Shown here: piece by piece, positions 9,572-45,453 of the stretch | Layout of the letters: every line of letters starts with the position of its first letter | How positions within the stretch are numbered: position 1 is the stretch's first letter | Source of the DNA: an uncultured bacterium | GTDB lineage: Bacteria; Omnitrophota; Gorgyraeia; Duberdicusellales; CBEUCJ01 | Assembly: GCA_965541615.1 (NCBI GenBank) | Contig: CBEUCJ010000004.1 | Coordinates: forward strand, 91,071-155,070 | Direction: 5' to 3' | Length of the DNA: 64,000 nt | Translations under genes and position numbers: made by a program | The notes under the pieces: generated by a model | Database searches by the model: none | The model's input: only the letters and a program-made list of their open reading frames with translations | Told to the model about the DNA's origin: nothing

Positions 9572-9587
9572 AAGAGGGAGGTGTGAA

Positions 9588-10790
9588 ATGGGAAAGGAAA
9601 AATTTGTAAGAGCAAAACCACACGTAAATATTGGTACTATAGGGCACGTAGATCATGGAAAAACGACTTTAACTAGTGCTATAACAAAAATACTCTCTTT
9701 AAAAGGTTGGGCTCAGTATATGCCATATGAAGCTATCGATAAGGCTCCTGAGGAAAAAGAAAGAGGTTTAACTATTAATATAGCCCATATTGAATATGAG
9801 ACTGAAAAACGTCATTATGCTCATATTGATTGTCCAGGTCACGCAGATTACATTAAGAACATGATTACAGGAGCTGCTCAAATGGATGGTGCAATTTTAG
9901 TAGTATCAGCTGCTGATGGTCCAATGCCTCAAACTCGTGAACATATCCTCTTAGCAAGGCAAGTAAATGTTCCTGCAATAGTAGTATTTTTAAATAAGAC
10001 TGACCAAGTAGATGACCCTGAATTAATTGAATTAGTAGAATCTGAAGTTAGAGATCTGTTGTCTAAATATGAATTTCCAGGTGATAAAGTTCCTGTAATA
10101 AAAGGTTCAGCAATCAAAGCTTTAGAATGTGGTTGTGGAAAAGAAGATTGTCAAAACTGTGGTCCTATCTGGCAGTTATTGAAAGCAGTAGATGATTATA
10201 TTCCTGAACCTGTAAGAGAAATAGATAAACCCTTTTTATTAGCAATTGAAGATGTTTTTTCCATTACTGGAAGAGGAACAGTAGTCACAGGTCGTGTAGA
10301 GAGAGGTAAATTGAAGGTAGGAGATGAAGTAGAACTTGTAGGTTTAAATCCTGAAATTAAAAAGACAGTGGTTACAGGAATAGAGATGTTCAGAAAAATT
10401 TTAGATGAAGCTTTAGCAGGTGATAATGTAGGTTTACTTTTAAGAGGTATAGAAAAAGATGAAGTAGAACGCGGTATGGTTGTAGCTTTACCAGGTAGTA
10501 TTACTCCTCATACTAAATTTAAAGCTCAGGTATATGTTCTAAAGAAAGAAGAAGGTGGAAGACATACTCCATTTTTCTCAGGTTATAGACCTCAATTTTA
10601 TTTTAGAACTACAGATGTGACAGGGACTATTAAACTTCCTCAGGGAGTAGAAATGGTTATGCCAGGTGATAATATAGAATTAGAGGTTGAATTAATAAAA
10701 CCAGTAGCATTAGAACAAAATTTAAGATTTGCTATAAGAGAAGGTGGAAAGACAGTAGGAGCAGGAGTAGTTACACAGATCATAGAATAA
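9588..10790 (+). CDS. tuf: Elongation factor Tu, carrying a Cys4 insertion
   Basis: [23 protein letters not shown] and SAIKALE motifs; about 400 aa. It has an unusual [13 protein letters not shown] segment in domain 1. Confidence 0.95.
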
Positions 10791-10856
10791 TTTAAACTAC
10801 TCCACAAAGAACTGAGTTTATGTAGATTTTAAAAAGAAAAGAGGGAAGTTTTTACT

Positions 10857-11165
10857 ATGCAAAAGATAAGGATTAAATTAAGAGCTTACGATCATAGGAT
10901 TTTAGATCAATCTGCACAAGAAATAGCTGATGTTGCCAGACGCACGGGAGCAAAAGTGAGAGGACCTTTACCTTTACCTACTAAGAAAAAGATATTTACA
11001 GTTTTGAGGTCTACCAATATAGATAAGACTTCTAGAGAACAATTTATGTTAGCTATTCATAAAAGGTTATTGGAACTAATAGATCCAACAGCCAAAACTA
11101 TAGATGCATTGAGAAAATTGAATTTACCAGCAGGTGTAGATGTAGAAATAAAACACGAGTTATGA
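10857..11165 (+). CDS. rpsJ: 30S ribosomal protein S10
   Basis: [19 protein letters not shown]... is canonical S10. Confidence 0.95.
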
Positions 11166-11782
11166 TTACAGCATTGTTAGGAAAGAAAATTGGGATGTCT
11201 CAAATATTTAAAGAAGATAGTGTAATTCCTGTTACTCTTATAGAAGCAGGACCTTGTTACATTTTAGAAATAAAAGAAGTTAATGGAAAAAAGAAAGTGA
11301 CATTAGGATTTTTAGAAGTAAAAGAAAAGAAAGTAAAGAAACCTCAGTTAGGTTTTTTTAAAAAAATAGGCGTTAAACCTCTAAAATACATTAAAGAGTT
11401 TGATGTAGATTCTGTGGAAGGTTTAAAGATAGGTCAAAAAGTAGGTGTAGAGATTTTTAAAGATATAAAATACGTAGATGTTACAGGAAGATCTAAAGGA
11501 AGAGGTTTTAGTGGCGGTATGAAAAGATGGGGTTGGAGTGGAGGACCTGATTCTCATGGATCTACTTCTCACAGACGTATAGGTTCAGCAGGAGCTACTA
11601 CTGATCCTGGAAGAGTTTGGCCTGGTCATCATATGCCAGGAAGATATGGATTTGAGAAAGTTACAGTTCAGAATTTGGAGGTAGTGAGAATTGAACCAGA
11701 AGATAATCTTTTGTTTGTAAAAGGAGCTGTTCCTGGAGCAAGAAACACGCTTTTAATAATCAGGAAGGCAAAGAAAAAATGA
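11162..11782 (+). CDS. rplC: 50S ribosomal protein L3
   Basis: L3 signature; position after rpsJ. Confidence 0.93.
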
Positions 11783-24933: not shown

Positions 24934-25442
24934 GACACAGAAAAGATAAAATAAAGTTGTCTAGGAATTTAGGACACAGGAAAGCTTTGTTGAGGAATTT
25001 ATGTAAGTCTCTCTTTATATCAGAATCAATTACTACTACTAAAGCCAAAGCAAAAGCAGCTCAAAGATTAGCAGAAAGATTGATAAGTTTAGCTAAAGAA
25101 GATACTCTTTGGCATAGAAGGCAAGTTTACAAGGTTCTTTGTGATCATAAGTTAGTGAAAAGACTTTTTGATAAAATAGCACCAAGATTTAAGGATATAG
25201 AGGGAGGTTATACTAGAATCTTTAATTTAGGTTTTAGGAAAGGAGATGGAGCTCAATTAGTGATTTTAGAGTTAACAAAGAAAGAGATAAAAAAGAAGGG
25301 AAAACCTGCTGAGAAAAAGAAAGAAATAGAAAAACCTAAAGAAGTAAAAGAACACGAACCTAAAGCTTTAAGAAAGCAACCAAAGCCTACATTCAGAGAA
25401 TTTATAAAGAGAGTCTTTAAAAGAGAAAGAGATTCTCTTTAA
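24930..25442 (+). CDS. rplQ: 50S ribosomal protein L17, with a long Lys/Glu/Pro-rich C-terminal extension
   Basis: L17 core (MRHRK...GHRKALLRNL); end of the alpha operon. Confidence 0.93.
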   Translation: MRHRKDKIKLSRNLGHRKALLRNLCKSLFISESITTTKAKAKAAQRLAERLISLAKEDTLWHRRQVYKVLCDHKLVKRLFDKIAPRFKDIEGGYTRIFNLGFRKGDGAQLVILELTKKEIKKKGKPAEKKKEIEKPKEVKEHEPKALRKQPKPTFREFIKRVFKRERDSL

Positions 25443-26596
25443 TGAACCCTATTTTTAAGACCTTAAAGCCTTCTGAGACTCTAAAGATCTCTGCAAAAGC
25501 TAAAGAGTTAGCAAAGAAAGGATTAGATGTTATAAATCTTTCAGCTGGTGAACCTGACTTTGATACTCCTCAATATATAAAAGATGCTATAAAAAAAGCT
25601 TTAGATAATTCTAAAACTAAATACACCCCTGCCACTGGAATAAAAGAATTGAAAGAAGTAATTTCAGAAAAGTTTAAGAAAGAAAATTCATTAGAATACC
25701 CTCCAGATAATATTATAATAAGCTGTGGAGCAAAACATGTATTATTCAATATACTCTTTTGTCTTTTAGAAAAGAATGATAAAGTTTTAATAATTTCTCC
25801 TTACTGGGTGAGTTATCCAGCACAAATAATTCTTTGCAGAGGAACTCCTGTTATTTTAGAAACAGAATTTGAAGATAAGTTTGATATAGATTTAGAAGAG
25901 TTTAGAAGGAAAGTAAAAGGATGTAAAGCAGTTATAATCAATACACCTTCAAATCCTACAGGAAAGATTTTAAAAAGAGAAATTCTAGAGAAAATAGCAA
26001 AAGTTTGTTTAGAAGAAAAAGTTTACATTATAAGTGATGAGATCTATGAGAAAATAGTATTTGAATCTGAACATTTTAGTATAGGATCAGTTTCCAAAGA
26101 GATTTTGAAGATAACTTTTACTGTGAATGGGGTTTCAAAATCTTTTTCTATGACAGGTTTAAGGATTGGATGGTGTGGAGCTCCAATTTTAGTTAAAGAA
26201 CTATCTGTTCTTCAATCACACACTACTTCTAATCCTACAAGTATATCTCAGTATGGGGCTTTGGAAGCTTTGAGTAATCCTTTATGTAGAGATTTTTATG
26301 AATTTATAAGAAAAGAATTTAAAGAGAGAAGAGATGTGTTCTGCAGAGAGTTAGAAAAAATAGATAAGTTAGAAGTCTTTGTGCCAGAAGGTGCTTTTTA
26401 TGTATTTTGCAAAATTAAAAATACAGGTTTAAGTTCAAGTGAATTTTGTGAAAAACTGTTAGAAAAAGAATTAGTCTCTTGTGTACCAGGGGTAGTTTTT
26501 GGTAAAGAAGGATTTGTAAGATTTAGTTTATCTCAAAGTAGAGAAAGATTAAAAGAAGCAGCTGTTAGAATTAAAAATTTTATAGCTTCTTTATGA
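25442..26596 (+). CDS. Class I/II PLP-dependent aminotransferase (aspartate aminotransferase family)
   Basis: Fold-type I AT motifs. The PLP-lysine sits in NGVSKSFSMTGLRIGW. The ATG overlaps the rplQ stop. Confidence 0.85.
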   Translation: MNPIFKTLKPSETLKISAKAKELAKKGLDVINLSAGEPDFDTPQYIKDAIKKALDNSKTKYTPATGIKELKEVISEKFKKENSLEYPPDNIIISCGAKHVLFNILFCLLEKNDKVLIISPYWVSYPAQIILCRGTPVILETEFEDKFDIDLEEFRRKVKGCKAVIINTPSNPTGKILKREILEKIAKVCLEEKVYIISDEIYEKIVFESEHFSIGSVSKEILKITFTVNGVSKSFSMTGLRIGWCGAPILVKELSVLQSHTTSNPTSISQYGALEALSNPLCRDFYEFIRKEFKERRDVFCRELEKIDKLEVFVPEGAFYVFCKIKNTGLSSSEFCEKLLEKELVSCVPGVVFGKEGFVRFSLSQSRERLKEAAVRIKNFIASL

Positions 26597-27843
26597 CTAT
26601 AGCTGAAAAAATAATTTCTGCCCATTGTGGAAAAAAAGTAAGACCTGGAGATTTAGTTTTGTGTGAAGTAGATCTATGTTTTGGTCAGGATGGCACCTCA
26701 AACCTAATAATTGAAAGATTAGAAGAACTAAATGCAAATAAACTAAAAATAAGAAAAGCTTTTCTAGTTATAGACCATAACTCTCCTCCACCAAATGCAG
26801 ATGCTAGTAATATTCACAAAAGAATGCGTCAATTTGCAGAAAGATTTAGTTTGAGATTATTCGATGTAGGAGAGGGAGTCTGTCATCAAGTAGTATTAGA
26901 ATCAGGTGAAGTTCTGCCTTCAAGATTAATCTTAGGTGCAGATTCTCACACTACTACTCACGGAGCTTTAAATACTTTTAGTGCAGGAATAGGTTCTACA
27001 GATGCTGCTGTTTGTTTTTACACAGGAAAATTATGGCTGAAAACCCCTCCTACTATTAGGGTAGAGTTTGAAGGCAGTTTGAATAAAGGTGTTGAAGGAA
27101 AAGATATAGCTTTATATTTGTTAAAAATTCTGGGTTTAAATAGAGCAATTTATAAAGTTTTAGAATTTGGGGGAAAAAGCTTAAAAGAATTACCTCAGGA
27201 TTTTAGATTTACTATCTCTAATATGAGTGTAGAAGCAGGAGCAAAAGCTGCTATATTTGAGTATGATAGTATCACTGAAAGTTGGATAAAAACAGAATTA
27301 CTAGATTTTGATAAGTATGAACCTATTTTTCCAGATAAAAATGCAGAGTATTTAGAGAGAATAGTGATAAATCTTTCAGAAATAGAACCTATGGTAAGCA
27401 TTCCTCATTCACCTGCAAATGTTAAGAGAATTTCAGAGCTCAGAGATGTTAAAATAGATATGGGATTTATAGGGACTTGTACTAATGGAAGGTTAGAAGA
27501 TTTAAGAAGAGCTGCTAAGATTTTGAAAGGAAGGAAGATAAAAAAGAATGTAAGACTTATAGTTGCGCCTGCTTCAAAAAGAGTATTTGAAAAAGCTTTA
27601 AAAGAAGGGTTAATAGAAATATTCTTGCAAGCAGGAGCTGTAGTCTTTCCACCTGGATGTGGAGTATGTGTGGGAGCTCATGGAGGAGTTCCTGCAGATA
27701 GGGAAAATGTGATATCAACTTCTAATAGAAATTTTAAAGGAAGGATGGGGAATCCTAATAGTTTTATATATTTAGGTTCTCCTTCAACAGTTGCAGCTTC
27801 CTGTATAGAAGGTAAAATTACAGACCCTAGAAATTTTTTGTAA
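26593..27843 (+). CDS. Aconitase-family dehydratase large subunit. It is the archaeal-type short LeuC: 3-isopropylmalate dehydratase or homoaconitase large subunit.
   Basis: 416 aa. Fe-S ligand cysteines in GTCTNG and PPGCGVCVG contexts. Confidence 0.85.
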   Translation: MTIAEKIISAHCGKKVRPGDLVLCEVDLCFGQDGTSNLIIERLEELNANKLKIRKAFLVIDHNSPPPNADASNIHKRMRQFAERFSLRLFDVGEGVCHQVVLESGEVLPSRLILGADSHTTTHGALNTFSAGIGSTDAAVCFYTGKLWLKTPPTIRVEFEGSLNKGVEGKDIALYLLKILGLNRAIYKVLEFGGKSLKELPQDFRFTISNMSVEAGAKAAIFEYDSITESWIKTELLDFDKYEPIFPDKNAEYLERIVINLSEIEPMVSIPHSPANVKRISELRDVKIDMGFIGTCTNGRLEDLRRAAKILKGRKIKKNVRLIVAPASKRVFEKALKEGLIEIFLQAGAVVFPPGCGVCVGAHGGVPADRENVISTSNRNFKGRMGNPNSFIYLGSPSTVAASCIEGKITDPRNFL

Positions 27844-27865
27844 AAGAAAGGGAGGTGAGAATAAA

Positions 27866-28918
27866 ATGACACCTGATATTAGAGAGTTATTAAAATTAAC
27901 TATGGAGATGGGAGCTTCAGATCTACATTTGACAGAAAATACACCCCCTGTATTAAGGATAGATGGAAGACTTATGAGGACAGATTTCCCTCCTTTAACA
28001 AGAGAAGATACAAAAAGATTAGTTTACAGTATTTTAAATGATATTCAGAGAGAGACTTTTGAAAGAGACAAAGAATTAGATTTTTCACTTAACTTACCAG
28101 GATTAGATAGATTCAGAGTTAATGTCCATATTCAAAGAGGGAGTGTAGAAGCTGCTTTCAGAAGGATTCCTAGAGTTATTCCTTCTTTTGAGGAGTTAGG
28201 TTTACCTCCTATAGTTGAAGAGCTAGCTAGAAAACCTAATGGGTTGGTTTTAGTTACAGGTCCTACAGGAATGGGAAAGACCACAACTTTAGCTGCTATG
28301 ATAAATTTAATTAACAATGAGAGAGAATGTTTGATAATTACTATTGAGGATCCTATTGAATTCGTTCATACAAACAAAAAAGCTATTATAAAACAAAGAG
28401 AGGTGTATTCTGATACAAAATCTTTTGCTGAAGCTTTAAAAAGAGTCTTAAGACAAGATCCCGATGTTATAGTGGTAGGTGAAATGAGAGATTTAGAAAC
28501 GATATCTACTACTCTTACAGCAGCTGAAACTGGCCACTTAGTTTTAGCTACTCTTCATACTCCTGATGCTCCTCAGACAGTTCAAAGAATAATAGATGTA
28601 TTTCCTCCTCACCAACAACAACAAGTAAGATTACAGTTAGCTGATTGTATTCAAGGAGTAATCTCTCAATTACTTTTACCTAATGCTTCTGGAAGAGGAA
28701 GGGTTTTGGCTACAGAGATAATGATAGGCACACCTGCTATAAGAAATTTAATAAGAGAAGCTGAAATCGAACAAATCCCTACTCTTATTCAGACAGGCGC
28801 TCAATATGGAATGAGAACTATGGATAAATCTTTAAAAGAATTGTATAAAAAAGGATTAATTACTTATGAGGTAGCTATAAGTAAAGTAAAGAATATTCAG
28901 GAATTTAAAAATCTATGA
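27866..28918 (+). CDS. pilT: PilT-family (type IV pilus retraction-type) hexameric ATPase
   Basis: Walker [10 protein letters not shown], Asp box [10 protein letters not shown], Walker B VVGEMRD, His box ATLHT; 350 aa. Confidence 0.85.
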
Positions 28919-29418
28919 TATTTGAAGGAAGAGTATTTAAATTTGCAGATGATATAAACACAGATTACATAATTTCAGGTAAGAGAAAGTTTTCAATTTC
29001 AGACATTAAAGAATTGTGCAAATATTTATTTGAGGATATAAGACCTGGATTTTATGAAGCAGTAAAAAATACTCAAAGTATAATTGTAGCAGGTAAAAAC
29101 TTTGGATGTGGCTCATCTAGAGAACAAGCCCCTTTAGTTATAAAAGAAGTAGGGATAAAATGTATAATAGCAAAATCTTTTGCAAGAATATTTTATAGAA
29201 ATGCTTTTAATGTAGGTTTAGCTTTAATAGAGTGTGATACTGATTTGATAAGTGAAGGAGATTTCTTAAGAGTAGATTTAGAGAAAGGGCTCATTTTTAA
29301 TCAGACTCAAAATTCTCAAATAAAATTTAAGGAGTTGCCTAATTTTATGGAAAAGATTTTAAAAGAAGGTGGATTAATTAATCTCATTAAAAAATATGAA
29401 GGCTGGCCCCAAATATAG
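28915..29418 (+). CDS. Aconitase-family dehydratase small subunit (LeuD-type)
   Basis: 167 aa. The swivel-domain family motif FGCGSSRE (LeuD-type GSSRE). Confidence 0.85.
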
Positions 29419-30487
29419 AGTAACTCTGATTCCAGGTGATGGTATAGGACCTGAAGTAATAGAAGCAACTTTAATGTGTATCTCAGCTTTAGGAGTAGAT
29501 ATTGAATGGGAGAAAGTCTGTGCAGGCCAGAAAGCTTTAGAAAAATATGGGACGCCTTTGCCTGATTTTGTCTTAGAATCGATAAGAAAAAATAAGGTAG
29601 CTTTAAAAGGACCTATAATTACTCCTGTAGGAAAAGGATTTAGATCAGTAAATGTAGCTATAAGAAAAGAGTTAGATTTATATGCATGTTTGAGACCTGT
29701 TAAGTCTTTGGAGGGAGCGAGTTCTTTAAAGCCTAATATAGATATTGTAGTTATAAGAGAAAACACAGAAGGGCTTTATATAGGCATTGAATTTGAAGCA
29801 AAGAGTTCAGAGAGTTTGAAATTCATAAATTTTTTAAAAAATGAGTTTGATATTCATTTAAAAGAAGATTCTGGTGTTTCTTTAAAAGTAATATCTGAAA
29901 AAGCAAGTAGAAGAATAATCAAATTTGCTTTTGAATACGCTTTAAAGAATAATAAAAAGAAAGTTACCTGTGTCCATAAAGCAAATATTTTGAAATTCTC
30001 TGATGGACTTTTTTTAAAGGTTTTTTATGAGGTAGCTTCTGATTATCCTCAGATCATAGCAGAAGATGTTATCATAGATAATTTATGTATGCAGTTGGTG
30101 TTAAAACCCGAAAATTTTCAAGTTTTAGTTTTGCCTAATTTGTATGGAGATATAGTTTCAGACTTATGTGCAGGTTTAGTAGGAGGGTTGGGATTAGCTC
30201 CTGGAGCTAATATAGGAGACCAAATAGCAGTCTTTGAGCCTGTGCATGGAGCAGCTCCTAAATACCAAGGTCAATATAAAGTAAATCCTACTGCTACCAT
30301 TTTATCAGCAGTCTTAATGTTAGAATATTTGGGTGAGAAAACAGCTGCTTTAAGATTAGAAAAAGCTGTAAGAGAAGTTATAAGAGAAGGAAAATACCTA
30401 ACCTATGATTTTAAAAAAGACGTACCAGATTTTAAGCCAGTAAGTACCTTAGAAATGGCTCAAGCTATATGCAGAAAGTTGCAGTAA
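29396..30487 (+). CDS. Beta-decarboxylating dehydrogenase of isocitrate/homoisocitrate type
   Basis: [12 protein letters not shown]-terminus. The substrate loop [22 protein letters not shown] has the Ser-x-Asn of IDH/HICDH rather than IPMDH. The start overlaps the leuD-type gene by 23 nt. Confidence 0.8.
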
Positions 30488-31377
30488 TAGGAGCAGGACA
30501 AGTAGGTAGTCAAACGGCTTTCTGGTTACTCTTAAAAAAAATATGTGAAGTCGTACTCATAGATATCAGTGGAGATTTAGCTAAAGGTAAAGCTTTAGAT
30601 TTAGAAGATTTAGGAGCAGGTTTAGGTATAGATTTTAATGTTAAGGGAACAAAGGATTTCTCAAAAATTAGAGATTCTGATATTTGTATAATAACAGCAG
30701 GGTTGACTCGTAAACCTGGTATGAGTAGAGAAGATCTATTGAAAGAAAATAAAGAGATCGTAAAAAGGATCTGTAATAAGATTAAGAAATTAGCCCCTCA
30801 ATCTATAGTGATAGTAGTTACCAATCCTGTAGATATATTAACTTATTTTGTCTTTAAGAATTTAGGTTTCTCAAGAAACAGAATTTTAGGGATGGGAAGC
30901 AGTTTAGATACTTACAGATTAAAAAACTTAATTTCTAAAAGATTAAAAGTCTCTATAGATTGTGTTGAATCCTTAGTGATAGGAGAACATGGAAAATGTA
31001 TGGTCCCTCTTTTTAGTAGAACTTACGTAAATCTCATTCCTATAAGAGAAATATTAAATAAAAAAGATTTAGATAGTTTGAAAGAAGAACTTTTAGATAG
31101 AGGAAAAAGAATAGTAGAGAGTTTGGGTAAAGGAAGTGCGTATTTAGCCCCTGGATTTTGTTGTGCTGAGATAGTTGAGAGCATCTTACAGAATTTAAAA
31201 AGAACTATACCTGTAAGTTTTTATCTAGAAGGAGAATACAGAGCAAAGAATGTATGTATAGGAGTACCTTGTGTTATTTCAAGAAAAGGTGTCCAAAATG
31301 TTGTGGAGATAAAAATTGACAAAGAAGAAGAGCAATTGTTCTTAGAAGCAGTTCGATTTTTAAAAGAGTATACATAA
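30469..31377 (+). CDS. mdh: Malate (or L-lactate) dehydrogenase, LDH-like family
   Basis: Rossmann [10 protein letters not shown], then NPVD and a catalytic GEHG block. Confidence 0.85.
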   Translation: MQKVAVIGAGQVGSQTAFWLLLKKICEVVLIDISGDLAKGKALDLEDLGAGLGIDFNVKGTKDFSKIRDSDICIITAGLTRKPGMSREDLLKENKEIVKRICNKIKKLAPQSIVIVVTNPVDILTYFVFKNLGFSRNRILGMGSSLDTYRLKNLISKRLKVSIDCVESLVIGEHGKCMVPLFSRTYVNLIPIREILNKKDLDSLKEELLDRGKRIVESLGKGSAYLAPGFCCAEIVESILQNLKRTIPVSFYLEGEYRAKNVCIGVPCVISRKGVQNVVEIKIDKEEEQLFLEAVRFLKEYT

Positions 31378-31422
31378 CTTTTCATCAAAATTCACTAAAA
31401 ATCAAAGAGGAGGGAGGTGAGT

Positions 31423-31695
31423 ATGAAGAAGGTAGTTTTACCTGATTTAGGAGAAGGAATTGAAAAAGCTACTATAAGCTACTGGTATGCTAATGAAGGC
31501 GAACATGTAGAAGAAGGAGACAATTTAGTAGAAGTAGCTACAGAAAATTCAGTAATTAACATTCCTGCTCCGTGTTCAGGGATAGTAAGTGAGATATATT
31601 ATGGGGAAGGTGAGGTAGCCAGAGTAGGAGAGGTTATATGTGTAATAAGAGAAGAGACTGAAGACTTAGATTTAGGATTAGAATTTGAAGAATAA
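31423..31695 (+). CDS. Stand-alone lipoyl/biotinyl-attachment-like domain protein whose modifiable Lys is replaced by Asn
   Basis: Reads like an E2 lipoyl domain (VLPDLGEGIEKATISYWYANEGEHVEEGDNLVEV..IPAPCSGIV). The hairpin motif is ATENS instead of ETDKA. The ATG at 31423 follows a GGAGGGAGGTGA RBS; the track start 31417 is a GTG. Confidence 0.6.
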   Translation: MKKVVLPDLGEGIEKATISYWYANEGEHVEEGDNLVEVATENSVINIPAPCSGIVSEIYYGEGEVARVGEVICVIREETEDLDLGLEFEE

Positions 31696-31707
31696 AAATA
31701 AATTTTA

Positions 31708-32835
31708 ATGAGAATATTTGTTTTTTATATCACTCAATTTTCTGGACATTATAAGGTAGCTTGTTCTATAGCAGAATACCTGAAAAGTATAAAAGATGTT
31801 AAGGTAAGAGAATTAGATCTTTTTAAATATCTTTTTCCCTTCACAGAAAGGATTATAAATTTTTTGTATACTCTTACTATCAGAAAGTTCCCTTTCATTT
31901 GGCAGGGTGTTTATGATAAAGAATTTGTAGTAAAGAATTTAGGAAGGTTAGAGAAAGTAATATTTAAATTAGCTTTTAAGAAATTAAATAAATTATTCTC
32001 TGAATACAGACCTTGTTGTGTAATATGCACTCAAGCTTTTCCGTGTATTTTGACTTCATATTATAAAGAAAAAACTTCTTCAAATTTTTTAATATTTGCA
32101 ATTTTAACTGATTTTTTGCCCCACAGATTTTGGTTAAATAAAAATATTGATTTTTACGTAACTTCTACTCTTGAGGCAAAAAAAAGATTATTAAAAGAAG
32201 GTGTAAACCCCCAAAAAATTTTGGAATTTGGTATCCCAATAAGAAAAGAATTTTTTGAAGTTTTTGAAGAAGAAAAAATTTTAAAGGAGTTTAATTTACC
32301 TAAGAATAAACCTAAGATTCTTTTAATGGGAGGAGGTCAAGGAATAGGTCCAATTGCAAATTTAGTCAGAGAATTTTTAAGACAGAATATAAAAGCACAT
32401 TTAATAGTTGTGTGTGGAAGAAATAAAAAATTGTATTTAAAAGTAAAAAAAATCATTTCTAATTCTAATGAAAATTCAGTATCTGTATTTGGATATTTAG
32501 AAGAGATATATAAATTAATGGAAGTTTCAAAAATTTTGATCTCAAAACCAGGAGGAGCTACTCTCACTGAAGCCTTAGTAAAAGAGTTATCTATAATAAT
32601 CTTAAATCCTCTCCCAGGTCAAGAGAATAACAATCTTAAGATAATTTCAAAATATAACTTAGCATTTAAAGCTAAAGATACCCAAGATGCTTTTAGAATA
32701 GCTAAAGAAATTATAGAAAATAAAAAAGATCTAGAAGAATTGAAATTCAGAATAAGAGATTTTAAGAAAAATTGGTCTCCTCAAAAACTTGCAAATTTTA
32801 TAACAGAAAAATGCTCTACTATTTCTACCTTATAG
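31708..32835 (+). CDS. Diacylglycerol glycosyltransferase, UgtP/MGDG-synthase-like (GT28 family)
   Basis: Blocks matching B. subtilis UgtP: FSGHYKVA, ILTDFLPHRFW, GIPIRKEF, LIVVCGRN, ISKPGGATLTEA, PLPGQE. Confidence 0.75.
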   Translation: MRIFVFYITQFSGHYKVACSIAEYLKSIKDVKVRELDLFKYLFPFTERIINFLYTLTIRKFPFIWQGVYDKEFVVKNLGRLEKVIFKLAFKKLNKLFSEYRPCCVICTQAFPCILTSYYKEKTSSNFLIFAILTDFLPHRFWLNKNIDFYVTSTLEAKKRLLKEGVNPQKILEFGIPIRKEFFEVFEEEKILKEFNLPKNKPKILLMGGGQGIGPIANLVREFLRQNIKAHLIVVCGRNKKLYLKVKKIISNSNENSVSVFGYLEEIYKLMEVSKILISKPGGATLTEALVKELSIIILNPLPGQENNNLKIISKYNLAFKAKDTQDAFRIAKEIIENKKDLEELKFRIRDFKKNWSPQKLANFITEKCSTISTL

Positions 32836-33650
32836 GAAGATTCATTAGTTTATTACTTCCTCTAAAATTAGCTTACATCTTAGGTGTATATTTAGCAGAT
32901 TTAAAATATTGTTTTTCTATAAAAGATAGAAGGATATTAAGAGAAAATTTACAAGCAATTTTCCCTTATAGAGAGAAGAAGTTTTATAAAAGATGTGTAA
33001 GACAAATTTTTAGAAATTTTGCTAAATACCTTGTAGATTTTTTTAGAGCAAAAAAGATCGATTTAGATTTTATAAAGAAAAAAGTTAAAATAATAAATAA
33101 AGAAAATTTAGATAGAGCTCAAAGTTTAAACAAAGGAGTAATAATTTTAACTGCACACTTAGGAAATTGGGAGTTAGGAGGTCAAGTAGCTTCTCTTTTG
33201 GGGTACCCTATATGGGCAATAGCTCTCCCTCATAAAAATAAGAAGATAGATAGTTTTTTTAATTATCAAAGAAAAATTAAAGGAGTAAATGTGATCCCTA
33301 CAGGCAAAAGAGTAAAAAAAATACTTACTCTTTTGAAACAAAGGAAAATCGTTTGCTTTTTAGGTGATAGAGATTTTTCAGGAACAGGCTTATATACAGA
33401 ATTTTTTGGGAAAAAAGCTCAAATCCCTAAGGGAGCAGCTTTTTTTTCTTTAAGGACAGGAGCTCCAATTTTGCCAGTATTTTTTATAAGGAAAGAAAAC
33501 GATAAATTTGAATTAATATTTGAAAAACCAATATATCCTACAAAAAGAGAACAAGATTTAGTAAAAGATTATGTTAAAGTAATGCAGGAGTATATAAAAA
33601 AGTATCCTGAGCAATGGTTTATGTTTCAAAGATTTTGGAAAGAGGAATGA
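32811..33650 (+). CDS. Lipid A biosynthesis acyltransferase family (LpxL/HtrB/PatA-type) acyltransferase
   Basis: LTAHLGNWELGG (H..NWE) motif and a basic N-terminal hydrophobic helix. The start is ambiguous: ATG at 32811 or TTG at 32772, both overlapping the upstream gene. Confidence 0.7.
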   Translation: MLYYFYLIGRFISLLLPLKLAYILGVYLADLKYCFSIKDRRILRENLQAIFPYREKKFYKRCVRQIFRNFAKYLVDFFRAKKIDLDFIKKKVKIINKENLDRAQSLNKGVIILTAHLGNWELGGQVASLLGYPIWAIALPHKNKKIDSFFNYQRKIKGVNVIPTGKRVKKILTLLKQRKIVCFLGDRDFSGTGLYTEFFGKKAQIPKGAAFFSLRTGAPILPVFFIRKENDKFELIFEKPIYPTKREQDLVKDYVKVMQEYIKKYPEQWFMFQRFWKEE

Positions 33651-34339
33651 ACGTATTTGCATTGTTGCCTTCTTACAATGAAGAAAAAAATATAGGAAAA
33701 TTAGTTAGAGAATTAAGGAAAAAAGGTATAAATGTGTTAGTAATAGATGATGGTTCACAAGATAACACTTCTCAAATAGCAAAAAAGTGTGGAGCTTTAG
33801 TCTTAAGAAACGAAAAAAATTTAGGTAAAGGAGCAGCTTTAAAGAAAGGTTTTGAGTTTTTAAAAAAGAAAGATTTTGATGCTTTATTGATCTTAGATGC
33901 AGATGGTCAACATTCTCCAAAAGAAGTAGATAAATTTCTTACAGAGTTTGTAAAGAAAGGCTCTGATCTTATTATAGGAAATAGATTTTCTACTTCTCCA
34001 AAAGGTATGCCTTTGATAAGATACATTACTAATAAAGTTATGTCTTTTTTAATTTCATTTTTAGTTAAGAAGAAAATTAGAGACTCTCAATGTGGATTTA
34101 GATTAATGAGTAAGAGGTTTTTAGAAAAATTAGAATTGGAGACCGCTCATTTTGAAGTAGAATCAGAAATGATTTTTCAAGCTATATTAAAAGGATTCAA
34201 TATTTCAGAAGTCTGCATAGATAGTATCTATAGAAAAGAAAAATCAAAAATAAATCCTTTTTTAGATACTTTAAGATTTTTTAAATTCCTTTTTAAGTAT
34301 CTTCCAAAGATATGGAAAAAGAATTTAAAGAAGAGTTAG
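33647..34339 (+). CDS. Family 2 glycosyltransferase (polyprenyl-phosphate sugar transferase-like)
   Basis: GT2 motifs (LPSYNEEKNI, VIDDGSQDNT, DADGQH). The ATG at 33647 follows an AAGAGGA RBS and overlaps the upstream stop (ATGA). Confidence 0.75.
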   Translation: MNVFALLPSYNEEKNIGKLVRELRKKGINVLVIDDGSQDNTSQIAKKCGALVLRNEKNLGKGAALKKGFEFLKKKDFDALLILDADGQHSPKEVDKFLTEFVKKGSDLIIGNRFSTSPKGMPLIRYITNKVMSFLISFLVKKKIRDSQCGFRLMSKRFLEKLELETAHFEVESEMIFQAILKGFNISEVCIDSIYRKEKSKINPFLDTLRFFKFLFKYLPKIWKKNLKKS

Positions 34340-35403: not shown

Positions 35404-36579
35404 ATGGCAAAGTTTTTAGACTATAAGAAAGAATTAGAGACAGCTGCAAAGTCTACTATACTAATACATGATCCAAAAGTCCTTATAAAACTAATAATAA
35501 GGATGATAGTAAGAAAAATAGAAGTCCTACATGCAGGAATATTTTTGTATGATAGAAAAAAATCTCTCTATATACTTACTGCTTCTAAAGGTAAGAGTCA
35601 ATTAAAACTGCCTGCAGGTTTTTTATCTGTAAGAAAAACTTCACCTTTAATAAGATTTTTTGTAGAAGACAGATGGGATTTATGGGGTAAAAAAATATTA
35701 ATTTACAAGAATATAAAGAACGCTCTTAAAAGAACTCGTGTAAAAAAAGATCCAGAGATTTTTAATTTTTACAAAAGGTTAAAAGAGCTTTTAGAGATAT
35801 ACCAATCTACAGCTTGTATACCAAGTTTTTTTAGAAAAGAGTTGATAGCTCTTTTGATACTAGGAAAAAAATTAGATAACACTGAATTTACAGAAGAAGA
35901 ATTAGAGTTTTTGGAGGCTTTAGCTTCAGATGTAGCTATGAGTGTTAGAAATGCTCAGCTTTTTGAAGATTTATTATCTCAAGTAGAAAAACACAGAAAG
36001 TTATTTTACAGTGTAGTTCAAGCTTTAGTAGAAGCTATAGATGCCAAAGATAGATACACAAGAGGACATACTCAAAGAGTTACTCAAGTTTCTTTAAGGA
36101 TAGCAGAGGAATTATTAAAAGATAAAAGGAGAAAATTTTCTCCTAATTTTTTGGAGAATCTAAAGATAGCAGCTCTTTTGCATGATATAGGTAAAATCGG
36201 AATCTCAGAGAGTATACTCAATAAAAATGGAAAGTTAACATCTAAAGAGAGAGAAGAGATAGAAAAACATCCTAACATAGGAGCTTCAATATTAGAACCA
36301 ATAGAAGAGTTAAAAGAGGTAATAGAAGGAGTTAAATACCATCACGAAAGATACGATGGTAAAGGTTATCCTGAAAAGTTAAAAAGGAAAAAGATCCCTT
36401 TGATAGCAGCTATAATAAGCTGTGCAGATGCTTACGATGCTATGAGTACAGACAGACCTTACAGAAAAGCTCTAACTAAAGAAGAAATATGCAAAGAGTT
36501 TATCTTGCAAAAAGGAAAACAATTTCATCCTCAAATAGCAAATATAGTTGTGAGGTTAATTAAAAAGAATAAGATTTAA
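35404..36579 (+). CDS. HD-GYP domain c-di-GMP phosphodiesterase with an N-terminal GAF-like sensory domain
   Basis: HD..LHDIGK..HHERYDGKGYP contains the GYP motif. Confidence 0.85.
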   Translation: MAKFLDYKKELETAAKSTILIHDPKVLIKLIIRMIVRKIEVLHAGIFLYDRKKSLYILTASKGKSQLKLPAGFLSVRKTSPLIRFFVEDRWDLWGKKILIYKNIKNALKRTRVKKDPEIFNFYKRLKELLEIYQSTACIPSFFRKELIALLILGKKLDNTEFTEEELEFLEALASDVAMSVRNAQLFEDLLSQVEKHRKLFYSVVQALVEAIDAKDRYTRGHTQRVTQVSLRIAEELLKDKRRKFSPNFLENLKIAALLHDIGKIGISESILNKNGKLTSKEREEIEKHPNIGASILEPIEELKEVIEGVKYHHERYDGKGYPEKLKRKKIPLIAAIISCADAYDAMSTDRPYRKALTKEEICKEFILQKGKQFHPQIANIVVRLIKKNKI

Positions 36580-39831: not shown

Positions 39832-40694
39832 AAATATGGATTAATGGCAGTTTATATGAGAAAGATGAAGCTAAAATCAGTGTTTTAGATCATGGATTTT
39901 TATATGGAGATGGTGTTTTTGAAGGAATAAGAGCTTATAACAGAGTAATCTTTAAGTTAGATGAACATTTAGATAGGTTATATAAGAACGCACATGTTAT
40001 CCTTTTGAAAGTTCCTTTAAAAAAAGAAGAGTTAAAAAAGGCAATTATAACTACCCTAAAAGCAAATAGATTAAAAGATGCTTACATAAGAGTAGTAGTT
40101 ACTAGAGGAGAAGGTGATTTAGGTTTAGATCCAAGAAAATGCAAAGATCCAAATGTAGTTATAATCACAGATAAAATAGTTTTGTATCCAGAGAAAATAT
40201 ATAAAGAAGGTTTAGAGATAATTACTGTGCCTACAAGAAGAAACTTATGTGAAGCTTTAAATCCAAATATTAAGTCTTTAAACTATTTGAATAATATATT
40301 AGCAAAAATTGAAGCTATAAATTGTGGGTACCAAGAGGCAATTATGCTTAACCAGCAAGGATTTGTGGCTGAATGCACAGGTGATAATATTTTTATAGTA
40401 AAAGATAATACTTTGGTTACTCCCCCTTCTTATTTAGGAGTTCTAAAAGGGATAACTGCTCAGACTGTAAAGGAATTAGCTAAAAAAATAAAAGTAAGTT
40501 ATTCAGAAGAAGTTTTTACAAGGTATGAACTCTATACAGCTCAGGAAGTATTTTTAACAGGGACAGCAGCTGAGATCGTCCCTGTAGTAAAAATAGATGG
40601 AAGAATAATAGGAGATGGCAAACCTGGTAAAGTTACTTTAAAGTTAATTAAAGAATTTCGTAAAATAGTAGAAAAAGAAGGGGTCAGATACTAA
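39828..40694 (+). CDS. ilvE: Branched-chain amino acid aminotransferase (fold-type IV PLP enzyme)
   Basis: Class IV AT pattern (GFLYGDGVFEGIRAY, EAIMLN..G.V.E). Confidence 0.85.
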   Translation: MKIWINGSLYEKDEAKISVLDHGFLYGDGVFEGIRAYNRVIFKLDEHLDRLYKNAHVILLKVPLKKEELKKAIITTLKANRLKDAYIRVVVTRGEGDLGLDPRKCKDPNVVIITDKIVLYPEKIYKEGLEIITVPTRRNLCEALNPNIKSLNYLNNILAKIEAINCGYQEAIMLNQQGFVAECTGDNIFIVKDNTLVTPPSYLGVLKGITAQTVKELAKKIKVSYSEEVFTRYELYTAQEVFLTGTAAEIVPVVKIDGRIIGDGKPGKVTLKLIKEFRKIVEKEGVRY

Positions 40695-41188
40695 TGCTTT
40701 GTGATATATGTGGTAAAAAAATAGCTACTGTTCATCTTACAGAGATTATAAATGGAGAAGTAAGAGAGCTCCATTTATGTGAAGATTGTGCTTTAAAAAA
40801 ATCCCAAGAAGTTCAACAACAGTTTTCTTTAGGAGATATATTAGCAGGTTTAGTAGAAGAGATAACTACACCTGAAGCAAGAGAGATTTTAAAATGCAAA
40901 AAATGTCAAATGACTTATCAGGAATTTAAAAAGATTGGGAGGTTAGGTTGTAGTAACTGTTATTTAGCTTTTAAAAAACAACTTTCACAACTTCTAAGAG
41001 CAATACATGGTTCAAATGCTCATCAGGGCAAAGTTCCTCCTACAAAGTTTAAGTTAAAAATAGATATAGAAATAGAAGAGTTAAAAAAAAGATTGAAAAG
41101 AGCAATAGAATTAGAAGAATTTGAAGAGGCAGCTAAAATAAGAGATAAGATAAAGGAGTTGGAAAAAAAGAAAAATGAATCTCAATGA
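40694..41188 (+). CDS. mcsA: McsA-like protein arginine kinase activator (two CxxC zinc fingers plus a UVR motif)
   Basis: CDICG...CEDC and CKKCQ...CSNC, then a C-terminal UvrB/C-like EEFEEAAKIRDKIKELE. Directly upstream of mcsB. Confidence 0.8.
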   Translation: MLCDICGKKIATVHLTEIINGEVRELHLCEDCALKKSQEVQQQFSLGDILAGLVEEITTPEAREILKCKKCQMTYQEFKKIGRLGCSNCYLAFKKQLSQLLRAIHGSNAHQGKVPPTKFKLKIDIEIEELKKRLKRAIELEEFEEAAKIRDKIKELEKKKNESQ

Positions 41189-42218
41189 TTTTTTAAAAAA
41201 GCCTCCTTGTTGGCTTAAAGAGAGTTCAGAATCTCAAAATATAGTAATATCTTCTAGAATAAGGATCGCCAGAAATTTAACAGATATTCCTTTCCCTCAC
41301 CGCGCTTCTTTAGCTCAAAAAGAAGAGATAATAAGAAGATTTTTAGAAGCAAAAGACAATGTAGAAAGATTTAAAGAAAGCGTATTTTTTAGAATCGATG
41401 AACTTTCTCATGTCGATAAACAGTTTTTGATCGAAAGGCATTTAATAAGTCCAGATTTAGCTCAGAATTCAAAAGGAGCAGCTTTACTAGTGACTTGTGA
41501 TGAATTAATTTCAGTAATGGTAAATGAAGAGGATCATTTTAGAATACAGATACTAAGTGCAGGAGCTCAATTAAAGAATTTATGGTATCAGTTAAACAGT
41601 ATAGATGATAAATTATCTGAAAAGTTAAATTTTGCTTTTTCTAAAGAATGGGGATATCTTACAGCTTGCCCTACAAATGTAGGAACAGGTTTAAGAGGCT
41701 CAGTTATGCTACATTTACCAGGATTGGTGTTATTAAAAAGGATAAATAAGGTTCTGCATGCTATCTCTAAATTGAGTTTTAATACAAGAGGTTTATTCGG
41801 TGAAGGCACTCAAGCTATAGGAAATCTATTTCAGATTTCTAACCAAATAAGCTTAGGACAGAGTGAGTCTGATATCTTAGATAATATTGAAGGAGTAATA
41901 AAACAAGTTACTGAGCAAGAGTTATCTGCAAGAGAACACTTATTAAAGACTCAAAGGATGTTTATAGAGGATAAAGTATGGAGAGCGTATGGAATTCTTA
42001 AAAATTCTAGAATAATAAATTCTCAAGAGGCTTTAGAATTGTTTTCTATGTTGAGATTAGGGTTAGATTTAGGTATAATAGAAAAAGTTAGTTACGCAGA
42101 TTTAAATGAATTGTTTTTAATTATACAGCCTGCTCACTTGCAAAAGAAAGAAGGAAGGATTTTGAGTGCTCAAGAGAGAGATATAAAAAGAGCAGAGTTA
42201 ATAAGGAGAAAGCTTTAG
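41175..42218 (+). CDS. mcsB: Protein arginine kinase McsB (ATP:guanido phosphotransferase family)
   Basis: Phosphagen-kinase catalytic motif [10 protein letters not shown](G/A)S. Confidence 0.88.
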
Positions 42219-42220
42219 AA

Positions 42221-44668
42221 ATGTTTAACAGATTTACTGAAAGAGCAAGGAAAGTAATTTTATTAGCTAAAGAAGAAGCCAAACGCTTCAACCATGATTA
42301 CATAGGTACTGAACACATTCTGTTAGGTCTAATTAAGGAATCTGAAGGAGTAGCTGTTGCAGTTTTAGAAAATTTAGGAGTTAATTTGAATGGATTAAAA
42401 AGAGAGATAGAAAAATACATACATCCTAATCCAAGTTCTGTACATATAGTAGGAGACATTCCTTTTACTCCCAGAGCAAAGAAAGCTTTAGAATTAGCAG
42501 CAGAAGAGGCACGCAACTTAGGGCATAGTTATATAGGTACTGAACATTTACTTTTAGGTTTATTAAAAGAAGGAGAAGGAATAGCTGCGCAGGTTTTAAA
42601 TGATTTGGGTGTAGATTTTCAGAAAGTAAGAACTGAAGTTATGAATCTCTTGGGATTTTCAACTGCGTCTAGTAGTTTTCCAGGTAGTCACAAAACGCAT
42701 GTTAAAACACCTGCTTTAGATGCATTTGGAAGAGATTTAACACAGTTAGCTAAAGAAGGCAAATTAGATCCAGTCATTGGCAGAGAGAATGAGATTCAGA
42801 GAGTAATGCAGGTCTTATGCAGAAGGACAAAGAATAATCCTGTTCTCTTAGGAGAAGCAGGTGTAGGAAAAACTGCTATTGTAGAAGGGTTAGCTCAAAG
42901 AATAATAAAAGGAGAAGTCCCTGAGTTATTAAAAAACAAAAGAATAGTCGCTTTAGATTTAGCTTTAATGGTTGCAGGTACAAAATACAGAGGACAATTT
43001 GAAGAAAGAATAAAAGCAGTTATGGAAGAGATAAAGCAAGCCAAAGATGTAATATTATTTATAGATGAGTTACATACCTTAGTTGGAGCAGGAGCTGCAG
43101 AAGGAGCAATAGATGCTTCAAATATTTTAAAACCTGCTCTATCTAGAGGTGAGATTCAATGTATAGGAGCTACTACTTTTGATGAGTACAGAAAACATAT
43201 TGAGAAAGATGCAGCTTTAGAAAGGAGGTTTCAGCCTATTTTTGTAGACCCTCCGACTGTAGAACAGACTATAGAGATATTAAAAGGGCTAAGAGACAGA
43301 TATGAAGCTCATCACAGAGTAAGGTTTTTAGATCAAGCTTTAGAATCTGCAGCCAAATTATCAGATAGATATATTTCAGGCAGATACCTTCCTGATAAAG
43401 CTATAGATTTAATAGATGAAGCAGGTGCACGTGCAAGACTAAGGGTTTTGACTCCTCCTCCAGAGATAAAGGAATTAGAAAATAAACTAGAACATATAAG
43501 AAAAGAAAAAGAAGCCTACATAAAACAACAAAATTTTGAAGCAGCTGCTAACTTAAGAGACGAAGAAAGAGCTATACGCATGAAGTTAGAAGCTTTAAGA
43601 AAAGAATGGTCTCAAAAGAGAGAATCACTGATACCCACAGTTACTGCTGAAGACATAGCAAAGATAGTTTCTCAATGGACAGGAATTCCTTTATACAGAT
43701 TAGAAGAGACTGAGTCTGAAAAATTACTAAGGTTAGAAGAGGAAATATCCAAAAGAGTAGTAGGACAATCAGAAGCTATAAAAGCTGTAGCCAGAGCTAT
43801 AAGAAGATCAAGAGCAGGAATTAAAGATCCTAAAAGACCTATAGGTTCTTTTATATTTTTGGGCCCAACAGGTGTAGGTAAAACTTTATTAGCAAGAGCT
43901 TTAGCTGAGTATATGTTTGGAAATGAGGAAGCATTAATCCAAATAGATATGTCTGAATACATGGAGAAATTTAATGTTTCAAGATTAATTGGAGCTCCTC
44001 CTGGATATGTAGGATATGAAGAAGGAGGCCAGTTAACAGAAGCTGTAAGAAGAAAACCTTATAGTGTAGTACTTTTAGATGAGATAGAGAAAGCTCACCC
44101 TGATGTTTTCAATCTTCTTTTGCAAATATTAGAAGATGGTAGGCTTACAGATAGTTTTGGAAGAAAGGTAGATTTTAGAAATACAATTTTAATCATGACT
44201 TCAAATGTAGGAGCTGAGATTATAAGAAAAAAAGGTTCCTTAGGTTTTAAAGTATTAAAAGAAGAGATTTCTTATGAAGAGATGAAAGAAAGGTTGTTAG
44301 AAGAAGTTAAGAAAACATTTAAGCCTGAATTTTTAAACCGAATAGATGAGATAATTGTTTTTAGACCTTTAAATAAAGAAGATTTGGAGAAAATTGTAGA
44401 TATTGAGATGAGCTTTGTGAAAGAGAGATTAAAGGAAAAAGGAGTAGATATCGAGTTAACAAAATCAGCTAAAGAGTTTTTAATCGAAAAAGGCTTTGAT
44501 CCTGCTTTTGGAGCCAGACCCTTAAAAAGAGTAATTCAAAGGTATATAGAAGATTCATTAGCAGAAGAGTTAATAGCTCAGAAGTTTTCACACAAAACCC
44601 CAGATCCTCAAACCAAACTCATCAAGATAAAAATAGATTTTAAAGATAATAAGATTATATTTGAATGA
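42221..44668 (+). CDS. clpC: ATP-dependent Clp protease ATP-binding subunit ClpC
   Basis: Two Clp-N repeats, two AAA+ modules ([16 protein letters not shown]), an internal UVR motif and a ClpP-docking loop region. Confidence 0.93.
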
Positions 44669-45453
44669 GATGCTTGGTTTTTTTAGTATCTTTCTTTTTA
44701 ACTTTACCTGTCTGGAGTCTTCAATTTAGAGGTGTCTTTAAAGAAAAGATTTTAGAATTTAATTTAGATTCTGAGAAAAATCCTTTTGTAAAAGGAAGAA
44801 TAATCTTTGATTCAGAAAAAATAAAAATCCCTTTTATAAAAGCTTCAAATTTTAAATTTTCAGGAATCTTTAATACACAGACTAAAAGCTCAAAATTTTA
44901 TTTAGAATTTGAAGATATAGATTTGAAAATTATAGCTTTCCTTTTTGGATTTACAGAGAAAGAGTTAGAAAATTTTAATTGTAAAGTAACAGGTTCTCTA
45001 AAATTAGATTCTAATACTTTAGAGGTTTTTCTTAAAAGTAAAGAATGTTTAATTTTTGGAGACAAGTTTAAATATGCTCAAATTGCAGGGAGAGGAGATA
45101 TTGAAAATTTTATTTTAAAAGACTCTTATTTGGAAAAGCCAGATGGTACCAAAATTTTTATTAAAGGTGTAGTAAATTTTAAAAAAATAAAAGATTCAAT
45201 AAGAAGTTTACATTTAGAATCAGAAAGCATAGAGTTTTTAAATAATTTTAAATTGACTTCTTATCAAGGCAGAATATATTTTTTAAAAAAGGGAGAGAAA
45301 GGAGATTTAGAGATTTGGCCTATATTCTATGATGATCAAAAAAATCTCCAAAGTTGGGAATTTAGATACAAGTTAGATGAAAGTGATTTTTTAAGAATAA
45401 GATTTAGCAATCAAGACACTATTTTAGGATTTGAGAAAAGATTTAAATTTTAA
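44665..45453 (+). CDS. Hypothetical secreted protein with an N-terminal signal peptide. It is translationally coupled between clpC and mlaE.
   Basis: [18 protein letters not shown] is a signal peptide. There are no recognisable family motifs. It overlaps both neighbours by ATGA/TAATG. Confidence 0.55.

Follow-up and report, generated by a model that had tools for sequence, protein, structure and literature searches.

We examined a stretch of 64,000 nucleotides (the window; contig CBEUCJ010000004.1, positions 91,071 to 155,070, assembly GCA_965541615.1) from an uncultured bacterium of the phylum Omnitrophota, whose genome has a GC content of 31%. Our subject is a small gene on the forward strand, here named LIPO, which encodes a free-standing lipoyl-domain protein without the lysine that normally carries the lipoyl group; its description draws on translation, Pfam, AlphaFold2, Foldseek, identical copies in other assemblies and substitution rates. 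The open reading frame (31423..31695, +) consists of 90 codons and a TAA stop (91 codons in all), and the product is MKKVVLPDLGEGIEKATISYWYANEGEHVEEGDNLVEVATENSVINIPAPCSGIVSEIYYGEGEVARVGEVICVIREETEDLDLGLEFEE. Gene calls on public contigs give exactly the same 90-residue protein. The original prediction, made from the sequence, had reported 91 amino acids, which is correct for the codons including the stop and one too many for the protein. It had also described a separate gene with a strong ribosome binding site rather than the N-terminus of an E2, and this description holds: a purine-rich Shine-Dalgarno sequence, GAGGAGGGAGG (31407..31417, +, read from the sequence), lies 5 nt before the ATG, and LIPO ends after 90 residues, with neither an E2 catalytic domain (DHRxxDG) nor a subunit-binding domain.

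LIPO is part of an operon-like string. Its upstream neighbour is mdh, encoding malate dehydrogenase (30469..31377, +; Pfam Ldh_1_N and Ldh_1_C, NCBIfam NF004863 with 364.7 bits), and its downstream neighbour, mgdg, encodes an MGDG-synthase/UgtP-like glycosyltransferase (31708..32835, +; Pfam MGDG_synth and Glyco_tran_28_C). The latter is probably translationally coupled to LIPO, since it starts 12 nt past the LIPO stop codon (TAA) and has no Shine-Dalgarno sequence of its own. No promoter-like or terminator-like site was found between mdh, LIPO and mgdg, and this, together with the short gap lacking a Shine-Dalgarno sequence, makes it likely that LIPO is co-produced with the glycolipid enzymes encoded downstream.

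The resemblance to lipoyl domains, first noticed by eye, was supported by profile searches and by structure prediction. Pfam PF00364 (Biotin_lipoyl) matched LIPO with an E-value of 7.8e-16 and 58.1 bits (cut-off 22.1), and residues 3-75 corresponded to profile positions 2-73 of 73, i.e. to the whole domain. NCBIfam E2 models matched only via their N-terminal lipoyl domain (about 80 positions), with scores far below their cut-offs, and HlyD_3 and NQRA_N were weak Pfam matches. The H-protein family of the GcvH/LbpA type gave no match among the Pfam and NCBIfam results, which were all of the E2 or BCCP type. An AlphaFold2 model, computed with the family alignment as input, had a mean predicted local distance difference test score (pLDDT) of 88 and seven beta elements by DSSP, with strands 34-39 and 44-48 around a turn formed by T40-E41-N42-S43. 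When this model was submitted to Foldseek, E2 lipoyl domains came first (2L5T, 2DNC, 3CRK, 1GHJ and 1LAB), with a probability of 1.00 and TM-scores of up to 0.85 (query-normalised); the single-domain carrier BLAP of Bacillus subtilis was also among the fold matches. As modelled, LIPO is a true lipoyl-domain fold, of the flattened eight-stranded beta-barrel type with a beta4-beta5 hairpin.

The sole part predicted to be disordered is an acidic C-terminal tail, REETEDLDLGLEFEE (31648..31692, +), with a pLDDT below 50 for residues 81-90. The tail ends in LGLEFEE, and 14 of its 15 residues are the same in a second species, introduced below. Most orthologs end at about 78 amino acids; in some of them C-termini with a hydrophobic stretch followed by EE(E) recur (ALFEEEE, LSLEEE; L/F-x-EE(E)). 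The acidic tail may be a candidate docking motif.

Lipoyl domains are textbook cofactor carriers whose whole known function hangs on one lysine, and LipB and LplA modify only this lysine, at the hairpin tip. In functional carriers it is found within D/E-K-A/S/V; this attachment lysine is not present in LIPO. At the corresponding position, the tip of the beta4-beta5 hairpin, LIPO has Asn42 (codon AAT, 31546..31548, +; placed by HMMER alignments and ortholog columns). When LIPO was aligned to PDB sequences with phmmer, V-A-T-E-N-S-V-I-N-I-P fell on V-S-T-D-K-V-D-T-E-I-P of E2 lipoyl domains without a gap, and other E2 lipoyl domains aligned E-T-D-K-A against V-A-T-E-N-S, again ungapped. Asn42 falls on Lys in every pairwise and family alignment, which, with the modelled hairpin at residues 40-43, substantiates the earlier reading that an asparagine occupies the site of the modified lysine. 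The hidden Markov model search and structure prediction proposed at the time as checks thus gave a full-length PF00364 match and an Asn at the hairpin tip. Each detail of the original observation that lent itself to checking was right, and the interpretation put on it is partly supported, as set out below. Given that LipB and LplA require the lysine at the hairpin tip, we infer from established enzymology that the canonical lipoyl arm cannot attach to this protein, and that it receives neither octanoate nor lipoate.

We next compared LIPO with its orthologs. A scan with one genome per species returned 319 genomes with a relative, from which the best 80 loci, nearly all of them annotated as Omnitrophota metagenome-assembled genomes, were examined. 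In addition, a profile search gave 3,006 proteins at E <= 1e-10, and 120 of these were checked. Together with the 86 unique sequences from the loci and a first search, this amounts to 206 other orthologs. The hairpin T-[D/E]-K-x-x-F-N (typically T-D-K-A/S-T-F) was found in 80/80 species-level loci, 10/10 homologs from the first search and 120/120 further members, i.e. in 206/206 other family members, as against T-E-N-S-V-I-N in LIPO. Column 42 is K and column 45 is F in 86/86 unique orthologs and in 120/120 further ones. Two columns that are 100% invariant among the 86 unique Lys-bearing sequences are therefore altered in the Asn lineage: K42N, and F45I (codon ATT, 31555..31557, +). Further near-unique changes are D41E, D34N, A73C and R76; of the replacements specific to this lineage, D41E, K42N and F45I are concentrated at the hairpin, and A73C and R76 lie elsewhere. 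The invariant residues that define the fold (W21, G26, V36, E37, T40, N46, P48, P50, G53 and G63) are all retained.

Could LIPO still be a redox or cofactor carrier by means of another group? Such a group might be a cofactor on Lys15, or a thiol pair formed by Cys51 and Cys73 in place of the dithiolane. The original prediction saw no other lysine nearby; K2, K3 and K15 are the only lysines of LIPO, and K15 lies in the beta1-beta2 loop, which in known lipoyl domains adjoins the hairpin. Cys51 (31573-31575) is shared by 81% of the family and sits in the PxPCSG turn, where a cysteine is, to our knowledge, unusual for lipoyl domains, and Cys73 (31639-31641) is confined to the Asn lineage, where it replaces an Ala found in 91% of orthologs. 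However, 83% of the Lys-bearing orthologs have K15 as well; it therefore does not compensate for the lost lysine, and we rejected it as a relocated attachment site. Lipoyl and octanoyl transferases are strict for the hairpin-tip lysine, their genes are absent from the locus, and strand topology indicates that Cys51 and Cys73 are probably not adjacent. We therefore regard carriage by another group as improbable. N-glycosylation of Asn42 by the neighbouring glycosyltransferases was also considered and dropped, as neither N42-S43-V44 nor N46-I47-P48 is an N-x-S/T sequon.

An asparagine in place of an otherwise invariant lysine calls for a check that the change is real. A third-position change in AAA or AAG suffices to produce AAT, so a sequencing or assembly error, or a reading of AAT as Lys, might in principle account for it. 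Against this, a protein identical to LIPO (P0001) is encoded by at least 13 contigs, which come from about 10 independent metagenome samples (JGI, ENA and Logan) and different assemblers and show the same neighbours each time. P0012 and P0013, variants within the 90% cluster, also read ATENS. P0012 has 6 differences from LIPO and comes from GCA_053996315.1, which has the same gene order and represents a different species (dS of about 0.7-1.9 and protein identity of 65%-97% over 20 syntenic genes). Sequencing error and strain polymorphism were rejected on these grounds. Recoding of AAT to Lys was rejected as well: when aligned to orthologs, AAT codons of the window genome fall on Asn in 47% and on Lys in only 10% of cases, much as AAC codons fall on Asn (53%). 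With the same Asn in a second species at a dS of 1.26 for LIPO, the chance of an artefact is practically negligible.

What is the family from which this protein derives? Reference proteins were mapped onto the loci, and this gave a conserved string that begins with rpoA-rplQ-aminotransferase-aconitase-family large subunit-pilT-small subunit-icd-mdh and continues after mdh with LPD-(LipB, LipA, both, or neither)-LIPO-(HD-domain gene or aminotransferase)-mgdg-lpxL-gt2. The order of the upstream string is the same in about 80 Omnitrophota loci, and the order of the downstream glycolipid genes is kept in the relatives. LIPO shows 50-71% identity to family members within a conserved order of about 15 genes; on this sequence and synteny evidence it is orthologous to a free-standing lipoyl protein that occurs throughout the Omnitrophota. 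Conservation and synteny of the Lys-to-Asn variant had been suggested as a further check, and here the outcome was divided: the variant occurs in two species with the same gene order, whereas the other 206/206 orthologs keep Lys.

In all loci with upstream sequence among the best 80, lpd, with or without lipB/lipA, was found between mdh or icd and LIPO. The LPD proteins of the relatives scored 500.8 and 445.3 bits against the equivalog TIGR01350 (cut-off 408.8), and they contain the CLNxGC disulfide along with an HPTxSE motif at the C-terminus. A neighbour of 244 amino acids was assigned to lipB (TIGR00214, 164 bits, cut-off 83.55), and a radical-SAM neighbour to lipA (TIGR00510, 324.4 bits, cut-off 310.25). 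A search of the window and 90 related loci, totalling 1.34 Mb, gave no E2 catalytic domain. By gene content, members of the family are thus free-standing lipoyl proteins of the E2 type, encoded with a reductase and lipoylation enzymes and with no E1/E2 nearby. Given the retained hairpin Lys and the presence of lpd and lipB/lipA directly upstream, the Lys-bearing orthologs very probably receive a lipoyl group and serve as small dithiol/disulfide carriers that Lpd cycles. The family is unnamed, and source annotations call its members "biotin/lipoyl-containing protein" or "E2 component". The literature searched, on free-standing lipoyl proteins and on lipoate metabolism in Omnitrophota, gave nothing on this family or on what its couple of Lpd and lipoyl protein does. 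A profile search of 1.84 billion representatives had multi-lipoyl-domain E2 proteins in its top places, so it does not provide a census of Lys-less single-domain proteins.

Examples of the lpd-(lipB and/or lipA)-free lipoyl protein module are found at 7901-10270 of locus L011, at 7853-10261 of L013, and near position 10001 in L021-L100. L013 is of the lipA type, and its lipoyl synthase reading frame (9166-10023) overlaps the start of the lipoyl-protein gene (10001-10261) by about 23 nt. This overlap in lipA-type loci suggests that translation of the enzyme is coupled to that of the protein it modifies. The lipA-type loci are without acnL, pilT, acnS and mdh.

The locus in the window departs from this arrangement. 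In the window and on every contig of both Asn-bearing species (L001-L003, L019 and L020), mdh is followed by LIPO after about 45-50 bp, and the locus lacks both lpd and lipB. In the window this mdh-LIPO junction, whose place is taken in relatives by lpd and lipB or lipA, measures 45 bp (31378..31422, +; from comparison of loci). The nearest relatives, P0002, P0003 and P0284, form one subclade with 66-71% identity to LIPO, and all have K. P0284 (locus L104, GCA_964397495.1, 3499-5047) has the hairpin TDKSVIN, in which K is kept and F is already replaced by I45, and it has no adjacent lipB. The Lpd of L104 is a protein of 391 amino acids with internal deletions of 16 and 7 residues, in which the catalytic motifs CxxxxC and HPxxSE are retained. 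In P0002 and P0003 both K and F are kept, and there is no lpd/lipB directly upstream; their genes are preceded either by at least 177 bp of non-coding sequence or by divergently transcribed polyamine genes. LIPO is directly followed by mgdg in L014, L101, L104 and L019, and in the nearest-relative subclade it abuts an mgdg-type gene, with anything from a 1-bp overlap to a 15-nt gap. L104 may represent an intermediate stage in the loss of the Lpd/lipoyl system, and P0284, P0002 and P0003 all look like intermediate stages. These comparisons make the Lys-less LIPO a lineage-specific derivative: two species-level genomes have it, and the family it comes from is phylum-wide.

Has the protein, having lost its lysine and its neighbours, simply begun to decay? 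To address this question, we estimated synonymous (dS) and nonsynonymous (dN) substitution rates between the two Asn-bearing species. For LIPO, dS was 1.26 and dN 0.035 (dN/dS 0.028), with 93% amino acid identity, compared to 72% for mdh and 65% for mgdg in the same species pair. Its dN/dS was the lowest of 20 syntenic genes, and only pilT had a higher protein identity or a lower dN. The ratio dN(LIPO)/dN(mdh) in the Asn pair was 0.22, lower than in all of 150 Lys-bearing species pairs chosen at similar mdh divergence (62-82% identity), for which the median was 0.75 and the 5-95% range 0.48-1.03. At the usual rate of the family about 24 nonsynonymous differences would be expected in LIPO, and about 7 were observed; relative to mdh, LIPO evolves about three times more slowly than the Lys-bearing family. 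The Lys-less LIPO is therefore under very strong purifying selection and is more constrained than its lipoylatable orthologs. This stronger constraint points to a function, retained or newly acquired, that is carried by the LIPO polypeptide itself, and it lends weight to the part of the original prediction that envisaged a repurposed domain.

The same figures bear on the notion that LIPO is a functionless relic, surviving because it delivers ribosomes to the abutting mgdg or because too little time has passed since function was lost. The loss of lpd, lipB and Lys42 would fit such a relic, and so would the start of mgdg so close behind the LIPO stop codon with no ribosome binding site of its own. 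However, translational coupling constrains the reading frame and not the amino acids, the dN/dS was measured at a high dS and is accompanied by a constraint tighter than that of functional orthologs in all 150 comparisons, and an undisrupted reading frame is found in both diverged species and across many samples. A decaying pseudogene is rejected by the dN/dS together with the 150 Lys-bearing pairs, and the relic as a whole is strongly disfavoured; we give it very little credence.

Taken together, we lean, with modest confidence, towards the explanation that LIPO is a former Lpd-coupled lipoyl carrier which has been kept for a lipoate-independent role, probably the binding of a partner. The ancestor would have been a free-standing E2-type lipoyl carrier encoded behind Lpd and often LipB or LipA. 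In the window lineage, lpd and lipB were dropped from the operon, the attachment Lys42 changed to Asn and the co-invariant Phe45 to Ile, and the barrel fold and acidic tail are kept under very strong purifying selection. Since the protein did not decay, and since fold and tail are strongly conserved, LIPO would now most likely act by contacting other proteins, as an adaptor or a regulatory subunit whose partner recognises the domain body. It is tempting to speculate that this partner might be the product of a co-transcribed gene, for example the glycolipid glycosyltransferase that seems to be translationally coupled to LIPO. The data thus establish the fold, the Lys-to-Asn change, the ancestral lysine, the ancestral linkage to lpd and lipB/lipA with its loss here, and the selection, and the lack of lipoylation, the binding role and the partner are inferred.

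Several considerations weigh against this explanation. The selection estimate comes from one species pair and a gene of 90 codons with about 7 nonsynonymous differences, at a dS near saturation. Lipoylation of the Lys-bearing orthologs is deduced from gene context, and the binding role of LIPO was arrived at by elimination. The glycosyltransferase gene mgdg evolves fast (65% identity between the two species), which does not support a tight co-evolving complex. Finally, the inspected sequence, about 72 kb made up of the window and about 7 kb further along the contig, is a small part of the genome, and lpd, lipB, lipA or lipoyl-dependent enzymes encoded elsewhere would keep open the possibility of a decoy.

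Such a decoy would act in a dominant-negative manner, competing with genuine lipoyl domains for Lpd, for a lipoyl-dependent E1 or P-protein, or for a ligase encoded elsewhere in the genome. It has a precedent on the biotin side, since the plant BADC proteins, homologs of BCCP without the biotinyl-lysine, regulate the heteromeric acetyl-CoA carboxylase and inhibit it (bioRxiv 10.1101/634550; PMC12706156). The intact domain body with all fold-defining invariant residues would suit a competitor, and strong constraint is compatible with a regulatory binder. Three observations speak against it: the natural partners in the relatives (lpd, lipB or lipA) have been deleted from the locus; no lipoate-related gene, second lipoyl domain or E2 core was found in the about 72 kb of contiguous sequence; and the hairpin residues likeliest to contact such enzymes (41, 42 and 45) are precisely those that were altered. 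The decoy for lipoate ligase or E3 that had been proposed alongside the repurposed domain thus becomes the less likely of the two roles, as those genes are gone from the locus, unless they are present elsewhere in the genome, and we consider a decoy unlikely overall.

The BADC proteins are nonetheless the closest functional analogy to the repurposed carrier that we favour. In both cases a swinging-arm domain of the barrel-sandwich type has lost the modified lysine and the protein has been retained. The BADC proteins differ from LIPO in belonging to the biotin branch, in being eukaryotic (plastid) and in coexisting with a true BCCP and the target enzyme, a target for LIPO being none that we saw in the about 72 kb; the likeness is one of analogy and not of homology at the family level. 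E2 lipoyl domains (PF00364; PDB 1LAB, 2L5T and 1GHJ) have the same fold and 26-39% identity to LIPO in Foldseek alignments, and share with it the N-terminal LPxLGEG motif, the PxPxxG motif and the place of the hairpin. In contrast to them, LIPO is free-standing, without linker, peripheral-subunit-binding domain or catalytic domain, it has Asn for Lys, and its neighbourhood contains no E1/E2 genes. From the free lipoyl protein of other Omnitrophota it differs by K42N, F45I and A73C, and by the absence of lpd and lipB/lipA from the locus.

Small single-domain carriers like LIPO are known from H-proteins of the GcvH, LbpA and LarG type that are paired with Lpd, and from B. subtilis BLAP/YngHB (PDB 1Z6H). 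The GcvH type is a different family and BLAP is of the biotinyl type, and unlike LIPO both keep the modified Lys. For Pelobacter, it has been proposed that Lpd works with an H-protein-like partner that carries electrons as a disulfide (PMC3543383). Lys-less domains with the same fold that act purely via protein contacts are exemplified by the "lipoyl domains" of membrane fusion proteins of the HlyD/AcrA type and by the N-terminal domain of NqrA; these are distant, ancient and multi-domain, whereas LIPO arose recently from a true E2-type lipoyl domain. The literature searched contained no report of a Lys-less E2-type lipoyl protein, in agreement with the original prediction, to which none was known.

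A lost cofactor site, lost partner genes and an increased constraint make an unusual combination. That LIPO lost its lysine and the adjacent E3 and lipoylation genes, yet became more strongly conserved, implies that the domain body is functional in itself, and LIPO may thus serve as a natural experiment for finding proteins that recognise the lipoyl domain independently of lipoate. If this lineage lacks lipoate metabolism altogether, LIPO would show cleanly how a cofactor-carrier fold can be put to new use once its cofactor is lost. The lpd-(lipB/lipA)-free lipoyl protein element itself, in an uncultured phylum and with no E1/E2 nearby, suggests an NAD(H)-linked dithiol carrier system. A further-reaching view is possible, although we hold it only tentatively and would put its chances below even: that LIPO is a pseudo-lipoyl protein, a carrier made cofactor-free after the loss of lpd/lipB and given a new, more tightly constrained function, and hence the lipoyl counterpart of plant BADC, with a phylum-wide redox couple of Lpd and free lipoyl protein as its parent system.

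The surroundings of LIPO in the window are as originally described, with genes of 2-oxoacid metabolism on one side and a cluster of glycolipid glycosyltransferase and acyltransferase genes on the other, and Pfam and NCBIfam assignments support both. The upstream string (25442..30487, +) encodes an aminotransferase, an aconitase-family large subunit, a pilT-type ATPase, the small subunit and an isocitrate-type dehydrogenase. Within it, over a stretch at 26593-29418, the gene for the pilT-type (T2SSE) ATPase (27866-28918) is wedged between acnL (26593-27843) and acnS (28915-29418), which encode the subunits of a dehydratase of the aconitase/isopropylmalate-isomerase type; the order acnL-pilT-acnS is found in most of the 80 Omnitrophota loci. 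The ATPase shows 96.6% identity between the two diverged species, the highest among the 20 genes. The rest of the glycolipid cluster, downstream of mgdg, encodes an LpxL-type lipid acyltransferase and a GT2 glycosyltransferase (32772..34339, +; Pfam Lip_A_acyltrans and Glycos_transf_2).

An HD-domain gene, HD-GYP-like by our reading, follows the glycolipid cluster in the window (35404-36579). In locus L030 the HD-domain gene (10333-11499) separates the lipoyl-protein gene from the glycolipid genes, and about half of the loci have a gap of corresponding length (about 1.3-1.7 kb) there; its position in the window is a local rearrangement. Further downstream, a UVR-domain protein, an ATP:guanido phosphotransferase with McsB_C and an AAA+ chaperone-like reading frame of 815 amino acids are encoded in a row (40694-44668); we read these as an mcsA-mcsB-clpC module of arginine-kinase protein quality control, the third reading frame having been named by eye from its sequence. 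Next to this row, a reading frame of 262 amino acids without a Pfam match (44665-45453) lies directly upstream of mlaE/mlaF/mlaD-like genes.

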